From Patescibacteria group bacterium (GTDB taxonomy: Bacteria > Patescibacteriota > Patescibacteriia > UBA9570), in contig JBAZWO010000006.1 of NCBI GenBank assembly GCA_041660305.1, forward strand, positions 16,432 to 80,431: 64,000 nucleotides of DNA. Reading direction: 5' to 3'. Position numbers and translations under genes: made by a program. Numbering within the stretch: the stretch's first letter is position 1; every line of letters starts with the position of its first letter. Below are positions 1,171 through 63,033 of the stretch, in pieces. Below the pieces are notes generated by a model. That model did not search any database, was not told the DNA's origin, and was given only the letters and a program-made list of their open reading frames with translations.

Positions 1171-1888
1171 TTTTTTTTGCAACCGTAACAATATTACGCT
1201 TATTCTCTGAATAAGCTTGTTGTTGTATTTGCCAGCCAGTAGCGTTTAATAAATAATTTAATTCTTTTAACGTAAAACCATGATAATAACGCTGGGCTAA
1301 AATTTTTCCAGCGCCATTTTTCCAAGGAATTAACGCATCGCCTGGATCGTATTGATTAACAAAATATTTTTTTAATTTTGGTTGATCCAAATTCCAGTTA
1401 GTCATGAATAATAGGCCAGCTGGTTTGGTTACCCGATGAAATTCTGTTAACGCTTGTAAACGTAATTGTTCAGACGGAATGTGTTGCAAGCTAGCAATGG
1501 CGGCAACAACATTAAAAACACCTTCTGGAAATGGTAGTTTTAACATTGAGCTTACAATGAAATTTAATTCAGGATATCGTTGTTTAGCGTTGGTGATTAA
1601 TTTTTCGGAAATATCTAGGCCGGTGTATTGTACGGGCTTGATTTTATTGATAATTTCCGCTAATCTGCCGTTACCACAACCGACATCTAATATTGTAATT
1701 TTATCAGCCCGCCTCGCCTCGGCGGAGCTTTCGGCGTAGTCGAGGCGGGTATTTTCATAATTTATCAGTGTTTTCAGTGCTTCAAACTCTCTCCAGGCAT
1801 ATTGTCTGGTTCGTGTAAATTCGTCAGCGATGGTATTATAATCCTGAGTGATTTTATCTATTAATTTTTGCGCCAATGCTAATTGCAT
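1043..1888 (-). CDS. class I SAM-dependent methyltransferase, Trm9/ALKBH8-MT-like (putative tRNA cm5U34 methyltransferase); last ~42 aa encoded by repeat element A
   Basis: Motif I is ILDVGCGNGRL. The N-terminus DYNTIADEFTRTRQYAW, plus AIASLQHIP, TNWNLDQ and LIPW..RYYHGFTLKEL, resemble the Trm9 signature as I recall it. The stop codon TAG is the reverse complement of the element's terminal CTA (1043-1045). Confidence 0.75.
   Translation of the reverse strand: MQLALAQKLIDKITQDYNTIADEFTRTRQYAWREFEALKTLINYENTRLDYAESSAEARRADKITILDVGCGNGRLAEIINKIKPVQYTGLDISEKLITNAKQRYPELNFIVSSMLKLPFPEGVFNVVAAIASLQHIPSEQLRLQALTEFHRVTKPAGLLFMTNWNLDQPKLKKYFVNQYDPGDALIPWKNGAGKILAQRYYHGFTLKELNYLLNATGWQIQQQAYSENKRNIVTVAKKTTPPSNLSPSLRLRRTGGLPSKGRRRNFSLPSLEEGRVGDGR
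1708..1749. repeat. GC-rich inverted repeat inside the methyltransferase CDS
   Basis: CCCGCCTCG (1708-1716) pairs perfectly with CGAGGCGGG (1741-1749). The spacer contains a TCGGCG direct repeat. The element is translated in frame as ..YAESSAEARRADK.. just upstream of motif I. Confidence 0.7.
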
Positions 1889-3429
1889 TACAAAGTATAG
1901 TTTACGAAGCCATTAATAAATACATAGATAACATTAATGCTTTGCGAGTTATTAAAGCGACGCATGCTAAGCGTTATCATATTACTATGCCCACTAATGC
2001 TAGCATATTAGCTGAATATCAAACAATGTTACAAGCACAACTAATTAAGCCGAGTTTAGTATTAGAAAAATTATTGCAAATTCGTAGTGTGCGTACTTTA
2101 TCTGGCATTGCACCTATTTGTGTTTTAACTAAACCGTATCCTTGTCCGGGTCGTTGTATCTATTGTCCAAGTGAAGCTAATATGCCAAAAAGTTACATGG
2201 ATACCGAACCGGGTGCTATGCGTGCTTTACAACTACAATTTGATCCGTATTTACAAGTTACTAAACGCATTGAAGCTTTAGAACGTAATGGTCATAGGCC
2301 GGAAAAATGTGAGTTAATTATACTTGGTGGCACTTGGTCGGCCTACCAACCTGATTATCAGGAATGGTTCATGAGACGCTGTTATGAAGGGTTTAATGGA
2401 GACGTTTCTACTACACTTGATGAAGCGAAACGGTTCAACGAAACCGCTAAATACCGAGTCATTGGTTGTACCATAGAAACCAGGCCAGATCATATTACTG
2501 AAGCTGAAGTAAAACGTTTACGTTGGTTAGGTGCTACACGTGTACAAATGGGAGTGCAAACAGTAAATATAGATGTTTTACAGGCGGCTAGACGTGAGCA
2601 AACTAATGAACAAGTAAAATATGCTACACAACTTTTAAAAGAAGCGGGTATTAAAATTACTTATCACATGATGCAGAATTTACCAGGCGCTACTCCAACA
2701 ACAGATTTACAAGATATAAAAACTATTTTTACTGATTCTAGTTATCAGCCTGATCACTTAAAAATTTATCCTTGTGTAGTGGTAAAGTCAGCACCACTTT
2801 ACCAGGTTTGGCAAAAAGAGGAATATCAGCCTTACGATTTAGATACACTCACTAATTTGTTAATTGCTATTAAAACGCAAGTGCCGCGTTATGTGCGCAT
2901 TGAGCGTTTGGTACGTGATATTCCCGCTAATTCTATTGCGGCCGGTAATGTAGTAACTAATTTACGGCAAATCATGCAGTTAAGAAAAGTGCAATGTAAA
3001 TGTATTCGTTGCCGAGAGCCTCGGGGTGATAATACCGGTATTAATGAAGCACAATTATTTATCGAGCAATACACAGCCAGCGCTGGCCAGGAATATTTTA
3101 TTAGTTATGAAAATCCAGAGCGCACTAAACTATTTGGCTTTATGCGTTTGCGTTTACAAAATATTAAACAACACTGGTATGGAGTGTTGCAGGATACAGC
3201 TATTATTCGTGAACTGCATATCTATGGTCGATTAGTGCCGATAGCCGATAACAGCAATGTGATACAGCATAAAGGTTTTGGTAAAAAATTAATGCTCGAA
3301 GCCGAGCGTATTGCTCAAGAACAAAATTTCCAAAAAATAGCTGTTATTGCCGGCGTCGGCGTGCGGGAATATTATGAAAAGTTAGGGTATAGGTTGGACG
3401 AGGAGTATATGATAAAAAATCTTCATTGA
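1876..3429 (+). CDS. elp3: Elp3-family radical SAM / GNAT acetyltransferase (tRNA U34 carboxymethylation enzyme homologue)
   Basis: Radical-SAM cluster motif CPGRCIYCP, a long Elp3-like core and a C-terminal GNAT-like segment (HKGFGKKLMLEAERIA). The start codon overlaps the divergent methyltransferase start by 13 nt. An internal TTG at 1942 is an alternative start. Confidence 0.85.
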   Translation: MLIALQSIVYEAINKYIDNINALRVIKATHAKRYHITMPTNASILAEYQTMLQAQLIKPSLVLEKLLQIRSVRTLSGIAPICVLTKPYPCPGRCIYCPSEANMPKSYMDTEPGAMRALQLQFDPYLQVTKRIEALERNGHRPEKCELIILGGTWSAYQPDYQEWFMRRCYEGFNGDVSTTLDEAKRFNETAKYRVIGCTIETRPDHITEAEVKRLRWLGATRVQMGVQTVNIDVLQAARREQTNEQVKYATQLLKEAGIKITYHMMQNLPGATPTTDLQDIKTIFTDSSYQPDHLKIYPCVVVKSAPLYQVWQKEEYQPYDLDTLTNLLIAIKTQVPRYVRIERLVRDIPANSIAAGNVVTNLRQIMQLRKVQCKCIRCREPRGDNTGINEAQLFIEQYTASAGQEYFISYENPERTKLFGFMRLRLQNIKQHWYGVLQDTAIIRELHIYGRLVPIADNSNVIQHKGFGKKLMLEAERIAQEQNFQKIAVIAGVGVREYYEKLGYRLDEEYMIKNLH

Positions 3430-3533: not shown

Positions 3534-4352
3534 ATGAAAAAAATCACTCCACAAGGATTGCAAGTATATACGTTTAAGCGGAATGACAACGATTATATTT
3601 CTTTAACTGACATAGCTCGTTATAAAAACACTGACGAACCAAAAGATATAGTCAAAAATTGGATGCGAACTAGAAGTACTATTGAATTTCTTGGGATTTG
3701 GGAGCAGTTAAATAATCCAAGATTCAAAGGGGTCGAATTCGATGCCTTTAAAAATTCAGCTGGTAGTAATTCTTTTGTATTATCGCCTCAAAAATGGATA
3801 GAACATACCAATGCTATTGGAGTGGTATCAAAATCTGGGAATGGCGGTGGTACATTTGCTCATAAGGATATAGCCTTTGAATTTGCTTCATGGATTAGCC
3901 CAGAATTCAAACTTTATCTCATTAAAGAATTTCAGCGCTTAAAAGACGAAGAAAATGAGCGTTTGCAAATAGGCTGGAGTACAAAACGTATGCTTACTAA
4001 AATAAATTATCATATACATACAGATGCTATTCAACGGCACTTAATTCCTAATCGCTTAGCACAAAACGAAATTAATATTATCTATGCGAACGAAGCCGAT
4101 GTATTAAATAAAGCCTTGTTTGGAAAAACAGCTAAAGAATGGCGAGCTAAAAATCCAAAAAAAGCTGGTAATATCCGCGATTATGCCGATGTTGTACAAC
4201 TGGTTTGTTTAGCGAATTTAGAAAGTTTGAACGCTGAATTTATTCGCCAAAACATCAAACAATCAGATCGCTTAATAAAATTAAACGAAATAGCCATTAT
4301 CCAAATGCGAGCGTTGTTAGCTAATAATACACTTAAACGCTTGGGGCGCTAG
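3534..4352 (+). CDS. KilA-N domain-containing DNA-binding protein (phage/mobile-element associated family)
   Basis: The N-terminal YISLTDIARYKN...FAHKDIAFEFASWISPEFKLYLIKEF pattern is typical of KilA-N proteins. Confidence 0.8.
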   Translation: MKKITPQGLQVYTFKRNDNDYISLTDIARYKNTDEPKDIVKNWMRTRSTIEFLGIWEQLNNPRFKGVEFDAFKNSAGSNSFVLSPQKWIEHTNAIGVVSKSGNGGGTFAHKDIAFEFASWISPEFKLYLIKEFQRLKDEENERLQIGWSTKRMLTKINYHIHTDAIQRHLIPNRLAQNEINIIYANEADVLNKALFGKTAKEWRAKNPKKAGNIRDYADVVQLVCLANLESLNAEFIRQNIKQSDRLIKLNEIAIIQMRALLANNTLKRLGR

Positions 4353-8126: not shown

Positions 8127-9747
8127 ATTTAATTTTCCATTCATCTTGTTAATCACGTTGATCATGATCATCATGGTCACGAATTGTATTTGGATTTATC
8201 AAGACCAAAGTCCGCCATTATCAGATATGGCTGGCCATTCGTTTCGTAGTGTGCAAATGGCTCATTGGTTACAGGATGGTAAATTGTTAAGTATTTTAAA
8301 ACAAGATACCATTTATCCACCATTTACTTATCTGGTTACGGGAATTATTTTTTTATTAGTTGGTTATTATCCAGATATTCCACAGTATTCGTTATTGTTA
8401 TGGGTAATAATATTAATGATTTCTATTTACAGTATTGGTAACACGATTTATAAAAATAAATATTTAGCGTTAGGCGCAACAGCGTTAACCATGTGTTATC
8501 CATTGGTAGCACATTTTAGCAGAATTTATGATCTTGATTTTCCGTTAACGGCCTTAGTAACAGCTAGTATGGCGGTATTATTACAAACGAATCATTTTGC
8601 TAAACGCCGGGAAACTATTGTTTTTTCATTACTAGTGGTAGCGGTATTATTAACCAAATGGACAGGAGTGTTTTTTATAGTGGGGCCAGCGTTTATTGTA
8701 TTATTATCAAAACGAAATAACATTAATATAAAAAATATTAGTCTGGCATTAGGCATTATTTTGGTGTTGACCATGCCTTGGTATTGGTTGCACACCAACA
8801 TCATTTTAGATATTGCCGAGGCTACGCGCAATAATGTGTTTTCTGTGCCACACGAGAATTTGTTACGTTTAAAAAGTTTGTTATTTTATGCACGATCTAT
8901 TACGCAAGGCATTATTTGGCCACTAACTCTAATATTTTTAACTGGTGTGATTATTTGTTTTAAAAAAATAAAACGTTGTTATTTTTGGCTATTAGTTAGT
9001 TGGTTGATAATACCATATTTAATCTTCACGTTTATTTATTCAAAAGAGATTCGTTATTTAATGCCGTTGTATCCGGCGCTAGCTCTTTGCAGTATGAGTT
9101 GTTTTAGTTATTTATTTTCAGCTTACTCACTGAAGCTTAAGCGTAGGTGGGTGTTCTCAGTAATTATTTCAGTATTCTCAGTGATTCTGATGTTTTGTAT
9201 TTGGTTCGATACATCTTGGGGCACAAGACTGTTACCATTTTCTCATGCCTACGGTTATCAAAAAATTACTCCTAAACAAGTGTATTATGGGTTTACGTAT
9301 CCTACGCAGTATCACACAACATTAATGTTAGTTGCTCAAGAACTAGCTAATATAGGTTCAGCTAAAGTAGCGGTAGTGCCGAATAGTATTTTTTTAACGG
9401 CTACGCAAATACAATATTACACGGCGTTGCATGGTAATATAAAGCTTAATTTTTCATTGAGTAGTAAATTGCGCAATCCGGCGTGGCGAGATGTATTACC
9501 TCAAGCCGATTATGTGATTACCAAAACCGGCGAACAAGGGCCAAAATTATGGGCAGCTAATTTAAAAGATATTGCAACAGCTGAACAGAATAATGATGTT
9601 ATTTTTCAGCAATTTGAATTAATTGGTCAGTGGCAATTAAATGGTATTGAAACTAGTGCGCAACAAATTAATTTATATAAAAAAAACGATAAATTACTCC
9701 CTTTCCCCTTAATAGGGGAAAGGGTTGGGGATAGAGGTAGGATTTAA
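8119..9747 (+). CDS. polytopic membrane protein, GT-C fold glycosyltransferase-like (PMT/ArnT, GT39/GT83-like); last ~16 aa encoded by repeat element C
   Basis: It has at least 10 hydrophobic segments, an IYPPFTYL motif typical of PMT_2/ArnT-like proteins, and a large C-terminal soluble domain. The C-terminal LLPFPLIGERVGDRGRI is read from the GC-rich hairpin. Confidence 0.6.
   Translation: MRKFNFPFILLITLIMIIMVTNCIWIYQDQSPPLSDMAGHSFRSVQMAHWLQDGKLLSILKQDTIYPPFTYLVTGIIFLLVGYYPDIPQYSLLLWVIILMISIYSIGNTIYKNKYLALGATALTMCYPLVAHFSRIYDLDFPLTALVTASMAVLLQTNHFAKRRETIVFSLLVVAVLLTKWTGVFFIVGPAFIVLLSKRNNINIKNISLALGIILVLTMPWYWLHTNIILDIAEATRNNVFSVPHENLLRLKSLLFYARSITQGIIWPLTLIFLTGVIICFKKIKRCYFWLLVSWLIIPYLIFTFIYSKEIRYLMPLYPALALCSMSCFSYLFSAYSLKLKRRWVFSVIISVFSVILMFCIWFDTSWGTRLLPFSHAYGYQKITPKQVYYGFTYPTQYHTTLMLVAQELANIGSAKVAVVPNSIFLTATQIQYYTALHGNIKLNFSLSSKLRNPAWRDVLPQADYVITKTGEQGPKLWAANLKDIATAEQNNDVIFQQFELIGQWQLNGIETSAQQINLYKKNDKLLPFPLIGERVGDRGRI
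9699..9741. repeat. GC-rich hairpin element, copy C
   Basis: A perfect 10-bp stem CCCTTTCCCC/GGGGAAAGGG with loop TTAATA (9699-9724), then GGGGATAGAGGTAGG. The 26-nt core and GGGGATAGAGGTA are shared with 61646-61690. Confidence 0.85.
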
Positions 9748-11812: not shown

Positions 11813-11885
11813 CTACCTCACCCTGTCTCTCGACTTACGCTCGAGACATCCCTCTCCTATTAGGAGAGGGAAAGAGGGAGAGGTA
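11813..11885. repeat. GC-rich nested-hairpin element, copy E
   Basis: 11-bp terminal inverted repeats TACCTCACCCT (11814-11824) and AGGGAGAGGTA (11875-11885) with 1 mismatch. Inner hairpins are TCTCGA/TCGAGA (11828-11846) and CCCTCTCC/GGAGAGGG (11850-11870). Confidence 0.8.
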
Positions 11886-55746: not shown

Positions 55747-57780
55747 ATGAAAGTTACTGTATTAATGCCAGTTTATAATAGAGAACGATATTTAGCTGAA
55801 GCAATTAACAGTATTTTAGCACAAACGTTTCAGGATTTTGAATTTTTAATTATTGACGATGGTTCAACTGATAATAGTGTTAATATTATTCGCACTTATT
55901 CAGATTCACGGATTAAATTAATAATTCATGAGCATAATCAAGGTTTAATTACCACACTTAATGAAGGAATTCAATTAGCCAACGCCGAATATATTGCTAG
56001 AATGGACTCAGATGATATTTCAGTGTCAATGCGTTTGCAACAGCAATATAATTATTTAATGGTTCATACTCAAGCAGTAGCAGTAGGCTGTGATTTTGCG
56101 GCCATTGATTTAACTGGCAATGTTCTTTATCAGCAAGCCACTCCGCACGGCGATATGGCTATTAAACGATCATTAGCTGTTTATAACCCCTTAGCACATG
56201 GTTCTATGATGTTTCGTAAAACAGCAGTACAAGCGGTTGGTGGTTATAAAGAGCAAGCTTATTTAGTGGAAGATTATGATTTATGGGCTAGATTAGCTAC
56301 CATTGGTGAATTGGCATCGTTACCAGTTAACTTATATAGTTGGCGAGTTAATCCACAAGGTGAAAGTGTTTCAAAATCTAATCAACAACACAGCAAAGCC
56401 AAAGAGATTCAACACCGTATTTGGGAAAGTTTTGGTGAAGTTGGCCCCGCTCCATATCGTGTTTGGTCAGAAATTTGGAATAAAACTGATAAGTCCGATT
56501 CTGATTTTTTTGTTCAACTTCATTTATTATTTGCTAAAGCATATTGTCAACAACATAAGTTTATAGAATTTTTACAACACGTAATGGTTGTTTTATTAGT
56601 AAAACCTAGTTTTTTTGTACGCTATCTTTTTAAAAAAATACAATTTTTAAGAACAAAGCGTAAAAATATAAATAAAAAAATACTAATTGTCACCCCACGT
56701 TATTTTCCTTCTTTTGGTGGTTTGGAAGAAGTAGCGCGCACCACAGCCCAAGAGCTTTTAAAGCAAGGTTATCAAGTAGAAATAGTTACCGAGAAACAAG
56801 CACCACAACAACTTAATCAAGAAGTAATTGATAATATAAAAGTTTATCGCTTGGGATATTTTCCAAGAGGAGCTAGCCTACAATTGTTACGTTTGGCTAT
56901 AAAATTAGTAGGGTTTGTTTTGATGCATCGAAAAAAATATCAAGGTATTATTATTCGTACTCTTACTTGGTATGCAATTTGTTTTGGAATATTGAAATGG
57001 TTAAAACTTCTTAAAATAAAAACATTTGTATCAGCAGAAGTTGGTGGTCAAGATTCGGAATTTAATACCATTAAGCACAGTCGTTTTAAAAAAATTATTG
57101 TTTGGTTACTTAATCACAACGATTATTTAAATAGTATTTGTTCTGAAAATTATCAACATTATCAACAACTTGGTTTTACAAAAAATAAACTCACGCAAAT
57201 CAATAATGGTATTGATATTACACCTTACAAAACTTCTCATTATCCAAACACAATTAATAATTTTTTATTTATTGGTCGTTTAGTAAAAACTAAAGGTTTA
57301 TATGAATTATTAGAGGCGTTTAAACAGTTATTGGATAAATATCCAAACAAAAAATTATATATTGGTGGCGACGGCGAAGAACGTAGTTATATTAAAAAAT
57401 TTATTCAACAACATAATTTAACTAATAATATTATTTATCAAGGTTACATTGATAATAAAAATAAAGCCAAATTTTTTTCCCAAGCTGATTGTTTAGTATT
57501 GCCATCTTATTTTGAGGCCAATCCCATGGCAGTGATTGAAGCAACAGTATATAAAAAATTAATTATTAGTACCGATGTTAGTGACATTAAAGCTATGTAT
57601 AGAAACAACATTATTTATTGTGAACCTAAAAGTGTTACTAGTTTATATCAAGCCATGGTTAAAGTAGTAATAGAATATAATCCAACTACTTTGAATTATG
57701 ATCATTTTATTGCACAAATAGATATTCGAAATACTATCAAGCAGATGCTGAATTTATTTTCTGTTAAAATCAAAATTTGA
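55747..57780 (+). CDS. bifunctional glycosyltransferase GT2 (N-terminal) + GT4 (C-terminal)
   Basis: I prefer the ATG at 55747. The GT2 part has VTVLMPVYNRERYL, IDDGSTDNS and RMDSDDIS. The GT4 part, from about 56680, has ILIVTPRYFPSFGGLEE and PSYFEANPMAVIEA. Confidence 0.8.
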   Translation: MKVTVLMPVYNRERYLAEAINSILAQTFQDFEFLIIDDGSTDNSVNIIRTYSDSRIKLIIHEHNQGLITTLNEGIQLANAEYIARMDSDDISVSMRLQQQYNYLMVHTQAVAVGCDFAAIDLTGNVLYQQATPHGDMAIKRSLAVYNPLAHGSMMFRKTAVQAVGGYKEQAYLVEDYDLWARLATIGELASLPVNLYSWRVNPQGESVSKSNQQHSKAKEIQHRIWESFGEVGPAPYRVWSEIWNKTDKSDSDFFVQLHLLFAKAYCQQHKFIEFLQHVMVVLLVKPSFFVRYLFKKIQFLRTKRKNINKKILIVTPRYFPSFGGLEEVARTTAQELLKQGYQVEIVTEKQAPQQLNQEVIDNIKVYRLGYFPRGASLQLLRLAIKLVGFVLMHRKKYQGIIIRTLTWYAICFGILKWLKLLKIKTFVSAEVGGQDSEFNTIKHSRFKKIIVWLLNHNDYLNSICSENYQHYQQLGFTKNKLTQINNGIDITPYKTSHYPNTINNFLFIGRLVKTKGLYELLEAFKQLLDKYPNKKLYIGGDGEERSYIKKFIQQHNLTNNIIYQGYIDNKNKAKFFSQADCLVLPSYFEANPMAVIEATVYKKLIISTDVSDIKAMYRNNIIYCEPKSVTSLYQAMVKVVIEYNPTTLNYDHFIAQIDIRNTIKQMLNLFSVKIKI

Positions 57781-57805
57781 CAGATAAAACAATTTTCTTT
57801 ACACT
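57777..57805 (+). promoter_or_regulatory. candidate promoter of the aro leader/operon
   Basis: TTGACA (57777-57782), a 17-nt spacer, then TACACT (57800-57805). It would give a very short 5' UTR before the leader ATG at 57816. Confidence 0.35.
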
Positions 57806-57815
57806 CTTTATAGCT

Positions 57816-57881
57816 ATGCGCTCCCAACCCAACACCTATTACTTTTTCTACTTTACCCGCTATTACCGGAAGCTGTGTTAG
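57816..57881 (+). CDS. 21-codon Tyr/Phe-rich leader peptide MRSQPNTYYFFYFTRYYRKLC
   Basis: Own translation. Eight of 21 codons are Tyr (5) or Phe (3). It lies in the 203-nt gap upstream of the DAHP synthase gene, followed by a terminator hairpin. Confidence 0.6.
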   Translation: MRSQPNTYYFFYFTRYYRKLC

Positions 57882-57921
57882 TGCGAGCATAAATCTCTAC
57901 CACAAACACTACACCTTCCGG
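57866..57921 (+). promoter_or_regulatory. candidate anti-terminator helix (57866-57878 pairing with 57908-57921)
   Basis: CCGGAAG (57866-57872) is a copy of the terminator 3' arm. It can pair with CTTCCGG (57915-57921), extended by TGT/ACA. This pairing excludes the terminator stem. Confidence 0.45.
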
Positions 57922-57940
57922 ATCACCGGAAGGTTTTGTT
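57913..57940 (+). terminator. intrinsic terminator (attenuator) upstream of aroF
   Basis: A perfect 9-bp stem ACCTTCCGG (57913-57921) / CCGGAAGGT (57926-57934) with loop ATCA, followed by TTTGTT. Confidence 0.65.
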
Positions 57941-57983
57941 ATATGAATCAGTTACAAATAATAAATTAAGCCATAATACAAAT

Positions 57984-59000
57984 ATGATAATAGTAATGCA
58001 AGAAGCAGCGGCCAAAGCACAAGTAACGGCCGTAGTGAATCATGTTAAAGAATTAGGCCTCAAGCCTGTGTTATTAGAAGGCACCGAACGTAATGTGATT
58101 GCCGTAATTGGTGATGAGCGTACGTTAGATATGCACGCCATAAATGCCATGGCCGGTGTGGAAAAAGTAATGCCCGTATTAGCGCCTTTTAAATTAGCTT
58201 CCCGTGAACACGCTCATGTAAAATCGGTTATCAATATTACGGAGCAGGTAAGTATTGGTGGTAAACGGTTAGCCATCATGGCCGGCAACTGTGCGGTAGA
58301 AACAGCCGAGATTTCTATGGCCACGGCGAAAGCGGTAAAACAAGCTGGAGCTAATATTCAACGGGGTGGTGCCTTTAAGCCGCGCTCGTCACCATACTCG
58401 TTTCAAGGTTTAGGCGAGGCCGGCTTGAAAATATTACAAGCGGTGCGAGCCGAAACAGGCTTGCCAATTATTACAGAAATATTAGATCCGCGGCATGTAG
58501 AGCAGGTAGCTAGTTACGCTGATATTTTGCAAATCGGTACACGTAACATGCAAAATTTTGAATTGTTAAAAGAAGTGGGTAACTGTAAAAAACCAGTATT
58601 GTTAAAACGTGGCATGGCGGCCACCATTGAAGAGTTTTTGTTATCAGCGGAATATATTTTATCGAGTGGTAACCCTAACGTGATTTTATGTGAACGGGGG
58701 ATTCGTACCTACGAAACCGCCACCCGTAATACCTTAGATATTTCCGCTATTCCCGTGTTAAAACACATGACGCATTTACCAGTAATAGTGGATCCTTCGC
58801 ATGCCGCTGGCAAACGAGATTACGTAGCAGCCTTAGCTAAAGCCGCTATTGCTGCCGGAGCTGATGGGTTACTGATGGATGTGCATCCTGATCCGGTAAA
58901 AGCGTTGGTAGATTCCGATCAAGCGTTAAACTTTGAATTATTTGCTGAATTAATGGTAGAGTTAAAACGGATTGCCGAGGCAGTTGGACGAACCATTTAA
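57984..59000 (+). CDS. aroF: 3-deoxy-7-phosphoheptulonate (DAHP) synthase, type I-beta with N-terminal ferredoxin-like regulatory domain
   Basis: I prefer the ATG at 57984; the track start is a TTG at 57936. The N-terminus MIIVMQE...[11 protein letters not shown] matches the Thermotoga-type DAHPS regulatory domain. The core has [16 protein letters not shown] and VDPSHA. Confidence 0.9.
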
Positions 59001-59002
59001 TT

Positions 59003-60016
59003 ATGACACTAACAATCACTTCAAAGTCCCAATCAAAAAGTTATCCAGTATTTATTCAAGCTGGCAGTTTAGCTAAATTTAAATTTCCTAAAGATTCAGT
59101 AATTATTACCGATCGTGTAATTGCTAAACACTATGCCAAGTTCATTAAAAAATATCGGCGCATTATTCTACCTAGTGGTGAAGCTACTAAAAACTTAACT
59201 ACTATTCAAAAAATTTGTGAGCAATTAGTTAAGTTAGGTTGCAATCGATCTACTACGTTAATGGCGTTAGGCGGCGGGGTAATTGGGGATATTACTGGGT
59301 TTGTGGCTGCGGTGTACATGCGTGGTGTGGCGTATTATCAGTGCCCAACTACATTATTGGCCATGGTGGATTCTAGTTTAGGTGGAAAAACGGGAGTGGA
59401 TTTATCGGCTGGGAAAAATTTAGTTGGGACTATTTATCCACCGGTAGCGGTAATAATGGATCCGTTAGTTTTAACCACATTACCAAATAAAATATTCACA
59501 ACTAGTTTAGGTGAAGTAGTAAAATATGGTTTATTAGACGGCACATTTTTTGCTTGGTTAGAAAAAAATAAAGTTAATATAAAACAGCGTAAATTAAATA
59601 CCTTACAACAATTAATTATTAAGTGTGCGGAAATAAAACAAGCCATTGTGGAAGCGGATGAACATGAAGGCGGGGCACGTATGCTACTTAATTTAGGTCA
59701 CACATTTGGCCACGCGTTTGAACAATTAAGTGGCTACAGGTTACCACATGGTCAAGCGGTGGCCATTGGTTTAGTGCAGGCTGCTCAGTTTGCTCACATG
59801 CTGGAACTAGAGCGTTTAATTAATTTGTTACAGTATTTTAATCTACCTATCAAACTAGCTAAACCGTATCCCATTAATCAAGTAATTAAAGCTATGCAGG
59901 CTGATAAAAAACGTCATGGTAATCAATTTACCTTAATATTACCCGAAGCCATTGGGCACACCACCATTCATAATTATATTACTAAGCAGCAAATAATTAA
60001 GTTTTTTATAAATTAA
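59003..60016 (+). CDS. aroB: 3-dehydroquinate synthase
   Basis: GGGVIGDITGFVAAVYMRGV, DSSLGGKTGVD, and NLGHTFGHAFE. Confidence 0.92.
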   Translation: MTLTITSKSQSKSYPVFIQAGSLAKFKFPKDSVIITDRVIAKHYAKFIKKYRRIILPSGEATKNLTTIQKICEQLVKLGCNRSTTLMALGGGVIGDITGFVAAVYMRGVAYYQCPTTLLAMVDSSLGGKTGVDLSAGKNLVGTIYPPVAVIMDPLVLTTLPNKIFTTSLGEVVKYGLLDGTFFAWLEKNKVNIKQRKLNTLQQLIIKCAEIKQAIVEADEHEGGARMLLNLGHTFGHAFEQLSGYRLPHGQAVAIGLVQAAQFAHMLELERLINLLQYFNLPIKLAKPYPINQVIKAMQADKKRHGNQFTLILPEAIGHTTIHNYITKQQIIKFFIN

Positions 60017-60178
60017 ACACCCTCAACCCCCTAAACATCCTACCTCACTCCCCCTAACCCCCTCTCTCCTCTGATTCTACCTTCCATCCCCAACCCTTCC
60101 CTCCTCTAAAGAGGGAAGGGAGAATTACGAAATTATTCCCTCCTTCCTTTGAGGAAGGAGGGTTAGGGAGGAAGGTAG
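60017..60178. repeat. GC-rich nested-hairpin element, copy B (composite), filling the aroB/aroA-aroK spacer
   Basis: Outer imperfect inverted repeats lie at 60040-60060 and 60160-60178 (CTACCT.../...AGGTAG). The inner 48 nt at 60077-60124 are identical to 1043-1090. A perfect 10-bp hairpin CCCTCCTTCC/GGAAGGAGGG lies at 60138-60162. Confidence 0.85.
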
Positions 60179-60211
60179 TATTGATGAGAAGAGACAGAAG
60201 GCCAAAGAGTT

Positions 60212-61693
60212 ATGCATCTTAAACCCGTCAAAATCACCCTTACTTTACCTGGTTCTAAATCGTTAACCCAACGAGCGTTAATTTGTGCTAGCTTGGCGCA
60301 AGGGCAATCAATTATTACGGCACCTAATTATGGTGATGATTTACAATATTTAATTAAGGCATTGCAACAACTAGGTGTACGTATACAAAAAAAATCGAAC
60401 CAACTAATTATAAATGGAGTAGCTGGAAAGTTTTGTGTGCCAACTAAGCCAATTTATGTAGGCGATTCCGGTGCTAATTATCGTTTTCTAGCCGAATTAG
60501 TACCAGTCGGTACCAAATTAACGGGTTCAGCTCAATTACAAAAACGTTTACTAAAAACGGCGCCAACTAGTCAAACGATATCTGGAAAATTATTAGCCGG
60601 TACCCTAACTAAGATACCTGATAAGTTAGTTTCCAAAGGTTATGTGGCCATGACACAAGCCGTTATTCGTGATTTTTCCGGACGCGGTCGAAAATATATT
60701 ATCGAGCCCGATGCTAGTGCGGCCACATATTGGCTCACTTATAACTGGATAACTGGTGCAAAAATAACGTTTAGTAACTGGCCAGTAAAATCTTATCAAC
60801 CTGATTTTCAGTATGCTAAAGCATTGCAACAGTTAACTAACGGCCAAACAGCGTTTGATTTTAATACCATGCCGGATAGCGTAATGAGTTTAGCTGTAGC
60901 AGCCATTTTTACCAAGAAAATAATTACTATTAAAAATATTTCCCAGCTTACTTACAAAGAAAGTAATCGTTTGCAAGCGTTACATTATAATCTAACTAAA
61001 ATCAACATAAAAAATACTATTACAAAAAACAGCATTACTATTTATGGCACGGGTGGTAAATTTAAACATTCCAAAATTAAAACTTTTAATGATCACCGCT
61101 TGGCCATGAGTTTTGGGGTATTAGGTTTGCCAGTAGATAAACCAAATTGTGTAAATAAAAGTTATCCTAATTTTTGGCAAGATTATAAAAAAATTCAAGA
61201 GGCTAATGTAGTGTTAACCGGTATGCGTGGGGTAGGCAAAACTACGTTAGGTAAACAATTAGCCAAACAATGGGGTATGAAGTTTGTGGATTTAGATCAA
61301 CTTATTGAACGTAAAGCTAAATTACCAATTGCTGAAATTGTTGCACGCTACGGCTGGAAAAAATTTCGTGCACTTGAACATCAAGTTTGTAAACAAATTA
61401 CTAAATTACAAAATACGGTTATTGCAACTGGCGGCGGCACATTAATGTATACACGTAATTACCAATTACTAAAACATAATTATATTATTTTATTAACCGC
61501 GCCATTAACTACATTAGCTAAAAGAATTAAACAAGATAACAATATTAGGCCAGCATTATCAAAAAATAACACGGCATTATCAGAATTAAAGGCGATTTGG
61601 GATAAGCGCAAAGAAACATATTATAAAATAGCGGATTTAATTTCCCCCTTTCCCCTTAATAGGGGAAAGGGGGCGAGGGGGATAGAGGTATGA
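60212..61693 (+). CDS. aroA-aroK: bifunctional EPSP synthase (short form, ~330 aa) / shikimate kinase; last ~16 aa encoded by repeat element D
   Basis: AroA motifs are LPGSKS, GDSGANYRF, EPDASAATY, KESNRL, NDHRLAMSF and KSYPNFW. The AroK domain starts near 61211 (TGMRGVGKTTLGKQLA, VDLD, GGG). Confidence 0.85.
   Translation: MHLKPVKITLTLPGSKSLTQRALICASLAQGQSIITAPNYGDDLQYLIKALQQLGVRIQKKSNQLIINGVAGKFCVPTKPIYVGDSGANYRFLAELVPVGTKLTGSAQLQKRLLKTAPTSQTISGKLLAGTLTKIPDKLVSKGYVAMTQAVIRDFSGRGRKYIIEPDASAATYWLTYNWITGAKITFSNWPVKSYQPDFQYAKALQQLTNGQTAFDFNTMPDSVMSLAVAAIFTKKIITIKNISQLTYKESNRLQALHYNLTKINIKNTITKNSITIYGTGGKFKHSKIKTFNDHRLAMSFGVLGLPVDKPNCVNKSYPNFWQDYKKIQEANVVLTGMRGVGKTTLGKQLAKQWGMKFVDLDQLIERKAKLPIAEIVARYGWKKFRALEHQVCKQITKLQNTVIATGGGTLMYTRNYQLLKHNYIILLTAPLTTLAKRIKQDNNIRPALSKNNTALSELKAIWDKRKETYYKIADLISPFPLNRGKGARGIEV
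61644..61690. repeat. GC-rich hairpin element, copy D
   Basis: A perfect 12-bp stem CCCCCTTTCCCC/GGGGAAAGGGGG with loop TTAATA (61644-61673), then GGGGGATAGAGGTA. The core is shared with copy C at 9699-9741. Confidence 0.85.
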
Positions 61694-63033
61694 TTTGTAT
61701 TGTCATCACCAATCCATCTCAAATTAAAACAGCCAACAAAACCGCCGCTAATTTATTAGAATTGCGCACAGATTTATATAAAATTTTTTCTTTAAGTAAA
61801 TTAGTGAAACAATGCCAGAAACCTGTTATTGTTACCATTAAAAATCAAGATAAACAGTTATTGCAAGAAGCTTTAAATTTAAACGTAGCTTATATTGATA
61901 TTGATTACAAAAATAAATTACTGTTAAACTATTTTGAAAAAAATAACAAAAATAATAAAACCAAATTAATTATTTCGTATCATAATTTTTCTCACACTCC
62001 TTCATTCAAACAGTTGGATCGGTTGGTTAAATCAGGCGTGAATAAAATAGCAACCATGATTAACGCGGTTGAGGATAACTGGGTAATCGCGCAGTTATTA
62101 AAAAAATATCCTAATAAAATTACCGCTATTGGCATGGGGGAATTAGGGATCATGACAAGACTGCATCCGTGGCAGAAGATTAGTTATTTTGCGATTGGCT
62201 TTGGTAGAGACGCCTTGCAAGGCGTCTCTACCAAAAAAATTGCTCCAGGGCAATTAACTATTCAAGAGCAAAAATTAAAATTATATGGCATTATTGGTAA
62301 TCCGGTGCAGCATAGCTTATCGCCAAAATTACATAATAGTTGGTTCAAGCAGCATAATATTTTAGCACTATATCAACGCTGGCAGGTAAAGACGTTGCAT
62401 GCAACGTCTCTACAGTTAATGATGAAAATATTCAGATTTTTTGATTTAGCCGGCGCGTCGGTAACCATGCCATATAAAAAAGATATTATTAAATATTTAG
62501 ATAGCATTAATATTCATGCCAAAAAGATTGGTGCAGTTAATACCATTGTGCGGAAAGGAAATAAATTAATTGGCTATAATACCGATTGGATCGGGGTAAA
62601 ATTAGTATTTAACCCCCTGCCTTGCAGGGAAGGGGGTAGGGGGAAGGGTCTACGCGTCTTAATCTTAGGCCGCGGTGGCGCAGCTCAGGCAGTGGCGTAT
62701 GCCATGAAAAAAATGGGTGCGAAATCAATTAACATGTTATCACGTCATGATAAACCAGATATAAATTTTGATATTCTAATTAACGCCACACCCGTGCGTG
62801 ATAAATTATTAATTCCGAAAGAATTATTACACGGTAAAATCGTGATGGATTGTAATTACCTGCCTTCGCTAAAGCTATGGCAGGCAGGTGGCGCTACTAA
62901 ATTATTACGTGTGGCAAAAAAAATGAACGCAATTACTATAGATGGATTACCAATGTTAATCAATCAAGCCAAAGAGCAATTTAGATTGTGGACTAGTAGA
63001 GACGTAGCGCGCTACGTCTCTACTATGTTATAA
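61690..63033 (+). CDS. aroD-aroE: bifunctional type I 3-dehydroquinate dehydratase / shikimate 5-dehydrogenase
   Basis: AroD motifs are ELRTDL, IISYHNF and KIATM. AroE motifs are YGIIGNPVQHSLSP, SVTMPYK, AVNTI, GYNTD and LGRGGAAQA. The ATG overlaps the upstream stop (ATGA). Confidence 0.88.
   Translation: MICIVITNPSQIKTANKTAANLLELRTDLYKIFSLSKLVKQCQKPVIVTIKNQDKQLLQEALNLNVAYIDIDYKNKLLLNYFEKNNKNNKTKLIISYHNFSHTPSFKQLDRLVKSGVNKIATMINAVEDNWVIAQLLKKYPNKITAIGMGELGIMTRLHPWQKISYFAIGFGRDALQGVSTKKIAPGQLTIQEQKLKLYGIIGNPVQHSLSPKLHNSWFKQHNILALYQRWQVKTLHATSLQLMMKIFRFFDLAGASVTMPYKKDIIKYLDSINIHAKKIGAVNTIVRKGNKLIGYNTDWIGVKLVFNPLPCREGGRGKGLRVLILGRGGAAQAVAYAMKKMGAKSINMLSRHDKPDINFDILINATPVRDKLLIPKELLHGKIVMDCNYLPSLKLWQAGGATKLLRVAKKMNAITIDGLPMLINQAKEQFRLWTSRDVARYVSTML
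62201..62234. repeat. perfect 34-bp palindrome, GTAGAGACG-N10-CGTCTCTAC family, copy 1
   Basis: TTGGTAGAGACGCCTTG|CAAGGCGTCTCTACCAA. It is in frame as GRDALQGVST in the AroD-AroE linker. Confidence 0.9.
62386..62413. repeat. 28-bp palindrome (1 mismatch), same family, copy 2
   Basis: GTAAAGACGTTGCA|TGCAACGTCTCTAC. It is in frame as VKTLHATSLQ, a different frame from copies 1 and 3. Confidence 0.85.
62612..62637. repeat. GC-rich hairpin inside aroE part
   Basis: ACCCCC (62612-62617) pairs with GGGGGT (62632-62637). The alternative is CCCTGC-CTT-GCAGGG (62615-62629). It is translated as NPLPCREGGRGKG just before the GRGGA nucleotide-binding loop. Confidence 0.6.
62858..62889. repeat. GC-rich inverted repeat inside aroE part
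   Basis: ACCTGCC (62858-62864) pairs with GGCAGGT (62883-62889). It is translated as YLPSLKLWQAGG. Confidence 0.45.
62994..63025. repeat. perfect 32-bp palindrome, GTAGAGACG-N10-CGTCTCTAC family, copy 3
   Basis: TAGTAGAGACGTAGCG|CGCTACGTCTCTACTA. It is in frame as SRDVARYVST at the extreme C-terminus of AroD-AroE. Confidence 0.9.

Follow-up and report, generated by a model that had tools for sequence, protein, structure and literature searches.

Here, we present an analysis of the leader region preceding aroF, the gene for a type I-beta 3-deoxy-D-arabino-heptulosonate 7-phosphate synthase (DAHPS), on contig JBAZWO010000006.1 of a Patescibacteria genome. The whole stretch of DNA analysed, 64 kb in length, is hereafter called the window, and positions are counted from its first nucleotide (nt). 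The leader region occupies a gap of 203 nt between the end of an upstream glycosyltransferase open reading frame (ORF; 57780) and the start of aroF (57984), and includes a promoter, a short ORF rich in Tyr and Phe codons and a terminator-like hairpin (Table 1). Based on these sequence features, their conservation in relatives, two alternative RNA pairings with covariation, the constant association with aroF and the agreement of the leader codons with operon content, the leader is very probably a ribosome-mediated (leader-peptide) transcription attenuator controlling the aroF operon.

Layout of the locus

All features that an earlier reading of the sequence (hereafter the original prediction) had placed in this gap were found at the same coordinates, namely the 21-codon Tyr/Phe leader ORF, the hairpin with its TTTGTT tail, the CCGGAAG duplication and the TTGACA-17-TACACT promoter. 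The leader ATG lies 10 nt past the -10 box, and transcription is predicted to start at about 57811-57812 (A/G, 6-7 nt past the -10 box), which would leave a 5' untranslated region (UTR) of about 4-5 nt. Across both strands and all frames of the window, at least six aromatic codons in seven occur in just nine places. The terminator hairpin consists of ACCTTCCGG (57913-57921), the loop ATCA and CCGGAAGGT (57926-57934), followed by TTTGTT, and the terminator scan gives its stem nine pairs, six of them GC. The core of the terminator 3' arm is duplicated within the leader ORF as CCGGAAG (57866-57872), with the leader stop codon 7 nt past this copy, and in folding the leader region is more stable than shuffled sequence (z = -2.9).

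Two further ORF candidates were rejected, a minus-strand ORF (57702-57890) that has nothing in its favour and a TTG-initiated extension of the leader ORF from 57777, the start of which falls inside the -35 hexamer. The stop codon of the glycosyltransferase gene (TGA, 57778-57780) also sits within this hexamer. No terminator is present between the glycosyltransferase gene and the leader promoter, so that read-through transcripts from upstream would hold the leader AUG internally.

Table 1 Features of the aroF leader and of the operon downstream (window positions)
Feature	Positions	Strand	Basis
-35 hexamer TTGACA of the leader promoter	57777-57782	+	Promoter scan; TTGAC invariant in 9 aligned relatives
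-10 hexamer TACACT, spacer 17 nt	57800-57805	+	T, A, A and T of TAnAnT invariant in alignment
Predicted leader ORF, 21 codons, MRSQPNTYYFFYFTRYYRKLC, stop TAG 57879-57881	57816-57881	+	Homologous ORFs in L001-L004, L006-L009, L082 and L083
Regulatory codons TAT TAC TTT TTC TAC TTT (Tyr-Tyr-Phe-Phe-Tyr-Phe), proposed stall sites	57837-57854	+	Aromatic run at the same codon positions in relatives
Second Tyr pair, TAT TAC	57861-57866	+	Window sequence; specific to the window
Region 2, antiterminator 5' strand	57866-57879	+	CCGGAAG 57866-57872 pairs with CUUCCGG 57915-57921; GUGUU 57875-57879 pairs with AACAC 57905-57909
Antiterminator, apical part	57881-57909	+	GUG 57881-57883 with CAC 57901-57903; GAG 57885-57887 with CUC 57895-57897; 3' strand AACAC 57905-57909
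Region 3, shared strand (terminator 5' arm), ACCUUCCGG	57913-57921	+	57915-57921 alternatively pairs with region 2
Region 4, terminator 3' arm CCGGAAGGU (57926-57934), then U-tract UUUGUU (57935-57940)	57926-57940	+	Terminator scan
aroF, type I-beta DAHPS with N-terminal ferredoxin-like regulatory domain, first regulated gene	57984-59000	+	PF18152
aroB	59003-60016	+	Operon gene
aroA-aroK fusion	60212-61693	+	Operon gene
aroD-aroE fusion	61690-63033	+	Operon gene
Strong operon terminator	62994-63025		Terminator scan

The original prediction had ascribed to the DAHPS an N-terminal regulatory domain like that of the Thermotoga enzyme, and this was borne out by the PF18152 domain and by a full-length alignment to Thermotoga maritima DAHPS (1RZM/3PG9). 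The public gene call of this protein begins at the fifth codon. The operon was also thought to encode the whole chorismate pathway, which is not so: aroF, aroB, aroA-aroK and aroD-aroE account for six of the seven steps to chorismate, and chorismate synthase (aroC) is absent from the operon and from the 64-kb window. No trp gene was found within the window either.

Conservation of the cassette and its linkage to aroF

Relatives were collected by scanning genomes, and then metagenomes, with the window DAHPS protein, which yielded eleven close relatives with 75-81% amino-acid identity. The relative loci from genomes are L001-L009 and the upstream-truncated L026, and the metagenome scan contributed only two close relatives, L082 and L083. 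Twelve homologous loci have the cassette of promoter, leader ORF and terminator directly before aroF, and every relative reaching far enough upstream has it. Full-length leaders are available from 11 loci (the window, L001-L004, L006-L009, L082 and L083), that of L005 being truncated.

The promoter is kept in the relatives as TTGACA-17-TAnAnT, the ATG follows 8-13 nt past the -10 box in all 11 loci, and a purine stands at +7 in most. This spacing implies 5' UTRs of about 1-6 nt in the cassette loci, the transcripts of which would be nearly leaderless. An in-frame, ATG-initiated leader ORF of 19-27 codons is present in all 11 full-length loci, and each leader includes 6-7 aromatic codons (within a stretch of 8 in the relatives) starting at codon 7-8; in the relatives, nearly every codon from 7/8 to 13/14 is aromatic. 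The corresponding leader peptides are MNNLQRYFSWFWYVMLRRVQVFSVVNR (L001), MTTQHNYFDFYWFTKLRKVLDISVS (L002), MNNTQQYFSWFWYTMLRRVRVFSVVND (L003 and L004), MNNTRKYFTWFWYTKLRKVPVFSMISA (L006), MIHLNKNFWFYFSYIQLRKVCAFDVS (L007), MNNSHSFNWYWFYKPLRQVLGLLLSTR (L008), MTHSSNFNFYWFYQPLRKVRVFGLSLI (L009), MKSTHQNFSFYWFYTQLRKVRNFGA (L082) and MNNLHRYYFWFSYTSLRKV (L083). The order of Phe, Tyr and Trp and the choice among synonymous codons vary among loci with the aromatic class remaining constant, which points to selection on codon class and not on peptide or RNA sequence. Further, the peptides vary in length and are conserved in their C-terminal residues solely where the RNA strand of region 2 dictates these (L-R-K/R-V). 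All relatives have in their leaders both this strand within the ORF, GCUCCGRAGGKUG, and a terminator 5' arm complementary to it, and their hairpins read CAGRCCUUYCGG...CCGGAAGGYCUG followed by U residues. The original prediction had staked its reading beforehand on conservation of the aromatic cluster and of the CCGGAAG duplication in relatives, and both are conserved in 11 of 11 full-length leaders. We regard this conservation as the decisive evidence that the leader is more than a chance arrangement.

A profile built from the cassette alignment recovered the twelve homologous loci in nhmmer at E = 1e-17 to 1e-37 and had no match in about 150 more distant aroF loci, the motif being confined to the close clade among the 161 fetched loci and the window. 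The window has the lowest profile score of the full-length members (62.8 bits).

Some of the relatives carry additional elements. In L002, a second short ORF, MNNSLTNKLSQNLMHYLVAQSTCYAYWFK, and an AT-rich hairpin (2849-2938) lie between the first leader with its terminator and aroF, and this ORF possibly represents a degenerate leader copy in tandem. In L001, L006, L007, L008, L009 and L082, the terminator 3' arm and U-tract can pair with a downstream complement (e.g. AAGGUUUUU...AAAAACCUU; -7 to -14 kcal/mol), which gives a possible 4:5 hairpin that the window, L003, L004 and L083 lack.

Before the cassette, the window has a glycosyltransferase gene and most relatives in which the preceding gene is visible have ndk, and the cassette always abuts aroF; since the upstream gene differs while the cassette stays with aroF, the hairpin is more than a terminator for the preceding gene. 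From the terminator stem to the aroF ATG, the distance is just 22-23 nt in L003, L004 and L083, which leaves no room for a separate promoter, and aroF must therefore be transcribed by read-through. Both observations speak against the alternative that the hairpin terminates the glycosyltransferase operon, or an independent small gene or small RNA, with aroF having its own promoter and the aromatic ORF being either incidental or the source of a functional hydrophobic micropeptide. Such an arrangement would agree with the lack of a terminator between the glycosyltransferase gene and the hairpin, with the overlap of the glycosyltransferase stop codon and the -35 hexamer, and with the AT-rich stretch between hairpin and aroF, which could hide a promoter. 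However, a functional micropeptide is at odds with the variable length and C-terminal part of the peptide, outside the residues imposed by region 2, and a second, covarying pairing (see below) has no role in a plain terminator. We consider this explanation very unlikely.

In addition to its position, the cassette is matched to the genes that follow it. All relatives with enough downstream sequence have the gene order aroF-trpE-trpG-trpD, and, wherever the leader of a relative is full-length, it includes 1-2 Trp codons in addition to those for Phe and Tyr. In the window, aroF is followed by the common-pathway genes (aroB, aroA-aroK, aroD-aroE), and the leader includes Tyr and Phe codons only, with no Trp. 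This match between codon set and operon content fits a leader in which amino acids would be sensed by the ribosome.

Alternative RNA structures

Pairing was counted on the leader alignment (A2), with sliding of the partner strand as the control. The antiterminator (columns 52-63 with 126-137) was paired in 93% of cells, compared with at most 57% for the slid partner, and the terminator (columns 123-134 with 142-153) in 92%, compared with at most 60%. Four pairs of the terminator have changed on both sides across the alignment, and column 131 of the shared strand shows covariation in either pairing (A-U / U-G, G-C / C-G and U-G / G-C): where this column has U, its partners are A (region 2) and G (region 4), a C has G as partner in both, and the G of L006 has U and C. 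The search for covariation that had been suggested with the original prediction thus came out in its favour, to a modest extent and with both pairings in at least 92% of cells.

Without any hint, RNAalifold gives the antiterminator as the consensus structure. In 11 of 11 full-length sequences, the antiterminator is the fold of the nascent RNA that starts with region 2 and stops after region 3 (-19 to -35 kcal/mol), and the terminator hairpins alone have -9 to -22 kcal/mol; for the window, the respective values are -19.4 and -15.5 kcal/mol. Within the antiterminator, the inner helix, which often reads GUGUUC/GAACAC, lies between an outer helix and an apical stem. Inner helices, differing in sequence, are found in every relative, and an alignment-based count of GUGUUC/GAACAC works for about half of the sequences because register and sequence differ. 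In the window, the 7-base-pair (bp) CCGGAAG core of the original prediction holds as the outer helix, whereas the TGT/ACA extension proposed for it does not, RNAfold giving instead the inner helix GUGUU/AACAC and a small apical stem.

A 1:2 hairpin was not found, as folding of the transcript from its 5' end as far as region 2 yields -2.7 to -10.4 kcal/mol, no better than with shuffled upstream sequence, and pairing of the aromatic-codon segment with region 2 was neither stable in folding nor conserved in the leader alignment. In its predicted structures, the leader is a three-segment attenuator, and the lack of a stable 1:2 hairpin means that read-through should be the default for untranslated RNA.

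The existence of two alternative structures does not by itself tell what sets the switch, which could in principle be an RNA-binding protein, an uncharged tRNA or a small ligand instead of a stalled ribosome, and in Firmicutes aromatic-pathway genes are indeed regulated by TRAP and T-boxes. Against this stand the conserved features themselves, i.e. an in-frame ATG and an aromatic run with synonymously varying codons, as well as the lack of a conserved structured aptamer 5' of region 2, where the segment folds no better than shuffled sequence. Nor did comparison with Rfam return any riboswitch or T-box: a cmscan of 57600-58100 at E up to 10 gave just four chance-level matches to unrelated families, and the whole window had no match at the gathering threshold, including to Trp_leader, Phe_leader, His_leader, Leu_leader, Thr_leader, leu/phe leader, Bacteroid-trp and T-box. 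The 15 related or analogous loci likewise gave nothing relevant, save one tRNA in L114. T-box and the known leader families, which the original prediction had proposed to check, are excluded by these scans, and a real switch set by something other than the ribosome appears highly improbable.

Proposed mechanism

We propose that transcription begins a few nt before the ATG at 57816 and that the leader ORF is translated from a nearly leaderless mRNA. With charged tRNA-Tyr or tRNA-Phe scarce, the ribosome would stall in 57837-57854 and leave region 2 (57866-57879) outside the ribosome. Region 2 would then zip with 57905-57921 behind the RNA polymerase, forming a long antiterminator hairpin that captures the terminator 5' arm, and the polymerase would read through into aroF-aroB-aroA/K-aroD/E. 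With plentiful aromatic aminoacyl-tRNAs, the ribosome would reach the stop codon (57879-57881) and cover or unwind region 2 and the inner helix; with region 2 blocked, the local hairpin (57913-57934) and its U-tract would form and the transcript would end at about 125 nt. Of the eight aromatic codons emphasised in the original prediction, the six-codon run holds the proposed stall sites, but the remaining two are badly placed for antitermination: this Tyr pair overlaps region 2 at CCGGAAG, and a ribosome stalled there would therefore mask the antiterminator strand, favouring termination.

Several observations weigh against attenuation by the ribosome as described here. The equilibrium fold of the complete window transcript is the terminator under every ribosome mask, and masking with ribosome footprints gave mixed results across the relatives. 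The folding comparison suggested with the original prediction hence supports two mutually exclusive structures and the formation of the antiterminator in nascent RNA, but not a switch at equilibrium; the switch must be kinetic, as in classical attenuators, where, for example in the Escherichia coli trp leader, the terminator is more stable than the antiterminator. The outer antiterminator helix of the window has 7 bp compared with 12 bp in the relatives, as the flanking GCU/AGC pairs are lost. In relatives with ORFs of 25-27 codons, the stop codon is located about 25 nt beyond the region 2 core, within the 5' half of the antiterminator, and a terminating ribosome therefore covers only or mainly the inner helix; under equilibrium masking, several of these long-ORF relatives keep substantial antiterminator probability with the ribosome at the stop codon. 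The U-tracts are short in several relatives (CUG-UUUA), the covariation is modest in sequences that are few and related, and the correlation between Trp codons and operon content represents one evolutionary event. Additionally, transcription start, leader translation, stalling and termination in vivo are steps that we infer from sequence.

Some of these points could be accommodated if the cassette family were a real attenuator of which the window holds a degenerate copy, acting mostly as a constitutive leaky terminator with basal read-through or a weak promoter farther downstream accounting for aroF expression. The equilibrium folds, the lost GCU/AGC pairs, a C-C mismatch and the lowest score against the family profile are all compatible with decay, and the sequence between the terminator and aroF includes a weak TTACAA-16-TAATAC match, which was not listed by the promoter scan. 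Yet the nascent RNA of the window still prefers the antiterminator by the energies given above, and the ORF, the promoter and the unbroken run of six aromatic codons are intact. As terminators usually exceed antiterminators in stability in classical attenuators, the case for degeneration is further weakened, and we hold it to be improbable.

Comparison with known systems

The general plan of the leader is that of E. coli trpL and pheL (the pheA leader): codons for the end product are clustered in a short leader ORF, the first structural gene is preceded by an intrinsic terminator, and the terminator 5' arm can instead be taken up by an antiterminator, with ribosome position deciding between the two. 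It differs from these in having no sequence or covariance-model match (RF00513, RF01859), in an ORF that is predicted to be nearly leaderless and has no Shine-Dalgarno site, in the number of amino acids that would be sensed (two for the window, three for the relatives, instead of one), and in its host, which belongs to Patescibacteria and not to Proteobacteria. Lacking too is the 1:2 pause or anti-antiterminator hairpin of the trp, his and phe leaders, so that the default without translation should be read-through; this hairpin is a trait of the classical enterobacterial type, and the mechanism itself does not demand it.

Attenuation of a DAHPS gene by a leader peptide with Phe-Tyr-Phe codons is known from Corynebacterium glutamicum aroR/aroF (Mentz 2013, PMC4046766), and the summary of Neshat 2014 given in PMC11802643 likewise describes an aroF leader peptide with Phe-Tyr-Phe. 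By description, the two systems are alike in the DAHPS gene and in the mixed aromatic codons, and they differ in the run of codons (6-7 here, three there), the Trp codons of the relatives and the phylum. The DAHPS subclass presumably differs as well, being type I-beta with a ferredoxin-like domain here. Leader ORFs without a ribosome-binding site or without a leader have also been reported, namely that of C. glutamicum ilvBNC (Morbach 2000, as cited in PMC4046766) and the leaderless polycysteine short ORFs of mycobacteria (bioRxiv 10.1101/834739). The leader predicted here would resemble these actinobacterial elements as an amino-acid-sensing short ORF at the 5' end which has no Shine-Dalgarno site and controls a downstream operon, but they concern other amino acids and another phylum, and a canonical hairpin with U-tract and a covarying antiterminator are evident here. 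The novelty claimed in the original prediction was therefore too strong.

The joining of aroF and trpEGD in one unit in the relatives resembles the aro supraoperon and trp operon of Bacillus subtilis, which also feature a leader terminator/antiterminator switch. However, the sensor in the B. subtilis TRAP system and in the T-boxes of Firmicutes is the TRAP protein or uncharged tRNA, in contrast to the conserved coding ORF and the absence of a T-box match here. In the literature library searched, no publication linking the candidate phyla radiation (CPR)/Patescibacteria with leader-peptide attenuation was found. We conclude that the cassette forms a new family within a known mechanism, for which there was no earlier description from this lineage.

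Candidate aromatic leaders upstream of DAHPS genes in other lineages

For a wider scan of 156 loci, the 400 nt upstream of the aroF homologue were searched for short ORFs that have at least five aromatic residues within nine and are followed by a terminator-like hairpin. This combination was found in 29 of the 156 loci on the forward strand and in none on the reverse complement of the same regions. The 29 loci include the window clade, a Peribacteria metagenome-assembled genome (MAG; L027), several families of Clostridia and an actinobacterial type, MRRFFGGRYFFYGGDDPA. The Peribacteria locus (L027, 976-1120) encodes an ORF with ...SWFSFFYYFF... and has its own antiterminator/terminator pair, thus presenting the same layout in unrelated sequence. 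Further loci with aromatic leaders are L040, L063, L072, L078, L097, L107, L114, L119, L120, L135, L139, L140, L142, L144, L146-L149, L152 and L157. The leader ORFs of other phyla look unrelated, carry dense runs of Phe, Tyr and Trp and precede type I-beta DAHPS genes; none of them matches Rfam. As the motif of the cassette profile is confined to the close clade, these analogues are not demonstrably homologous to the window leader.

On balance, we lean towards the broader view that the cassette represents the first recognisable family of ribosome-mediated attenuators in CPR/Patescibacteria, with a minimal design (a nearly leaderless ORF, three RNA segments and read-through by default) and a codon set that was re-tuned with the cargo of the operon, and that it is one instance of a widespread, polyphyletic and uncatalogued class before type I-beta DAHPS genes. 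If this is true, ultra-small, reduced bacteria would sense the supply of aminoacyl-tRNA via coupled transcription and translation, which suggests that Patescibacteria regulate the little biosynthesis they have kept and rely on translation closely trailing transcription. The cassette would be a concrete, conserved cis-regulatory element in this group and a natural sensor of compact size that covers all three aromatic amino acids, in which the codon set can be seen changing with operon content, i.e. Trp codons with aroF-trpEGD and none with aroF-aroB-aroAK-aroDE. Further, many aromatic leader peptides before DAHPS genes in other phyla appear to be unannotated, and could be useful for catalogues of RNAs and small ORFs and for operon annotation.

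Host lineage and translation starts

All named homologues of the window YchF, at 60-73% identity, are from Patescibacteria (Kerfeld-, Magasanik-, Falkow- and Buchananbacteria), and the NCBI entries of the exact window proteins likewise bear the name Patescibacteria; by both, the window lineage is assigned to Patescibacteria and is Kerfeldbacteria-like. The labels of the related MAGs conflict: L001, L003, L005, L006 and L009 are listed by one pipeline as 'uncultured Gammaproteobacteria', and L004, L008, L026 and L002 as Kerfeldbacteria or Patescibacteria. Since L003 and L004 hardly differ in their leaders and L004 carries the label Kerfeldbacteria, the Gammaproteobacteria label was treated as an artefact.

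The genome is AT-rich, with a GC content of 30-38%. Among the gene starts of the window, a Shine-Dalgarno-like motif precedes 6 of 50 ORFs compared with a background of 7.8%. The leader ORF does lack a Shine-Dalgarno site, as the original prediction had pointed out, but this is the norm in a genome that hardly uses such sites and so does not set the leader apart; it also makes an ORF without one near the 5' end plausible. A count of promoters situated 4-13 nt ahead of gene starts gave 6 of 50 ORFs, compared with 2.7% at random positions, which is a weak enrichment; in several first genes, the -10-like box stands 5-11 nt ahead of the ATG. These patterns hint that initiation in this genome may often be leaderless or independent of Shine-Dalgarno sites, although leaderless mRNAs are not claimed here as a rule.

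Other features of the window

The shikimate operon has unusual gene fusions (60212-63033), in which a short (about 325 amino acids) 5-enolpyruvylshikimate-3-phosphate synthase is joined to shikimate kinase, and dehydroquinase to shikimate dehydrogenase. The spacer of 195 nt between aroB and aroA (60017-60211) is first C-rich and then G-rich, in a genome with about 33% GC, and can form a long hairpin (-73 kcal/mol, z = -4.9). Polypyrimidine:polypurine hairpins are found as a family at gene ends (1060-1086, 9699-9725, 11849-11871, 60094-60120, 60138-60162 and 61645-61673), with examples such as CCCTTCCCTC...GAGGGAAGGG and CCCCTTTCCCCT-TAAT-AGGGGAAAGGGG, and a stretch of 48 nt (60077-60124) is identical to 1043-1090. 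These elements look like repetitive extragenic palindromic (REP)-like elements or a small mobile repeat. Elsewhere in the window (1876-3429 and 3534-4352), a full-length Elp3-type radical-SAM/GNAT tRNA U34 modification enzyme, of a type uncommon in bacteria, adjoins a KilA-N domain protein.

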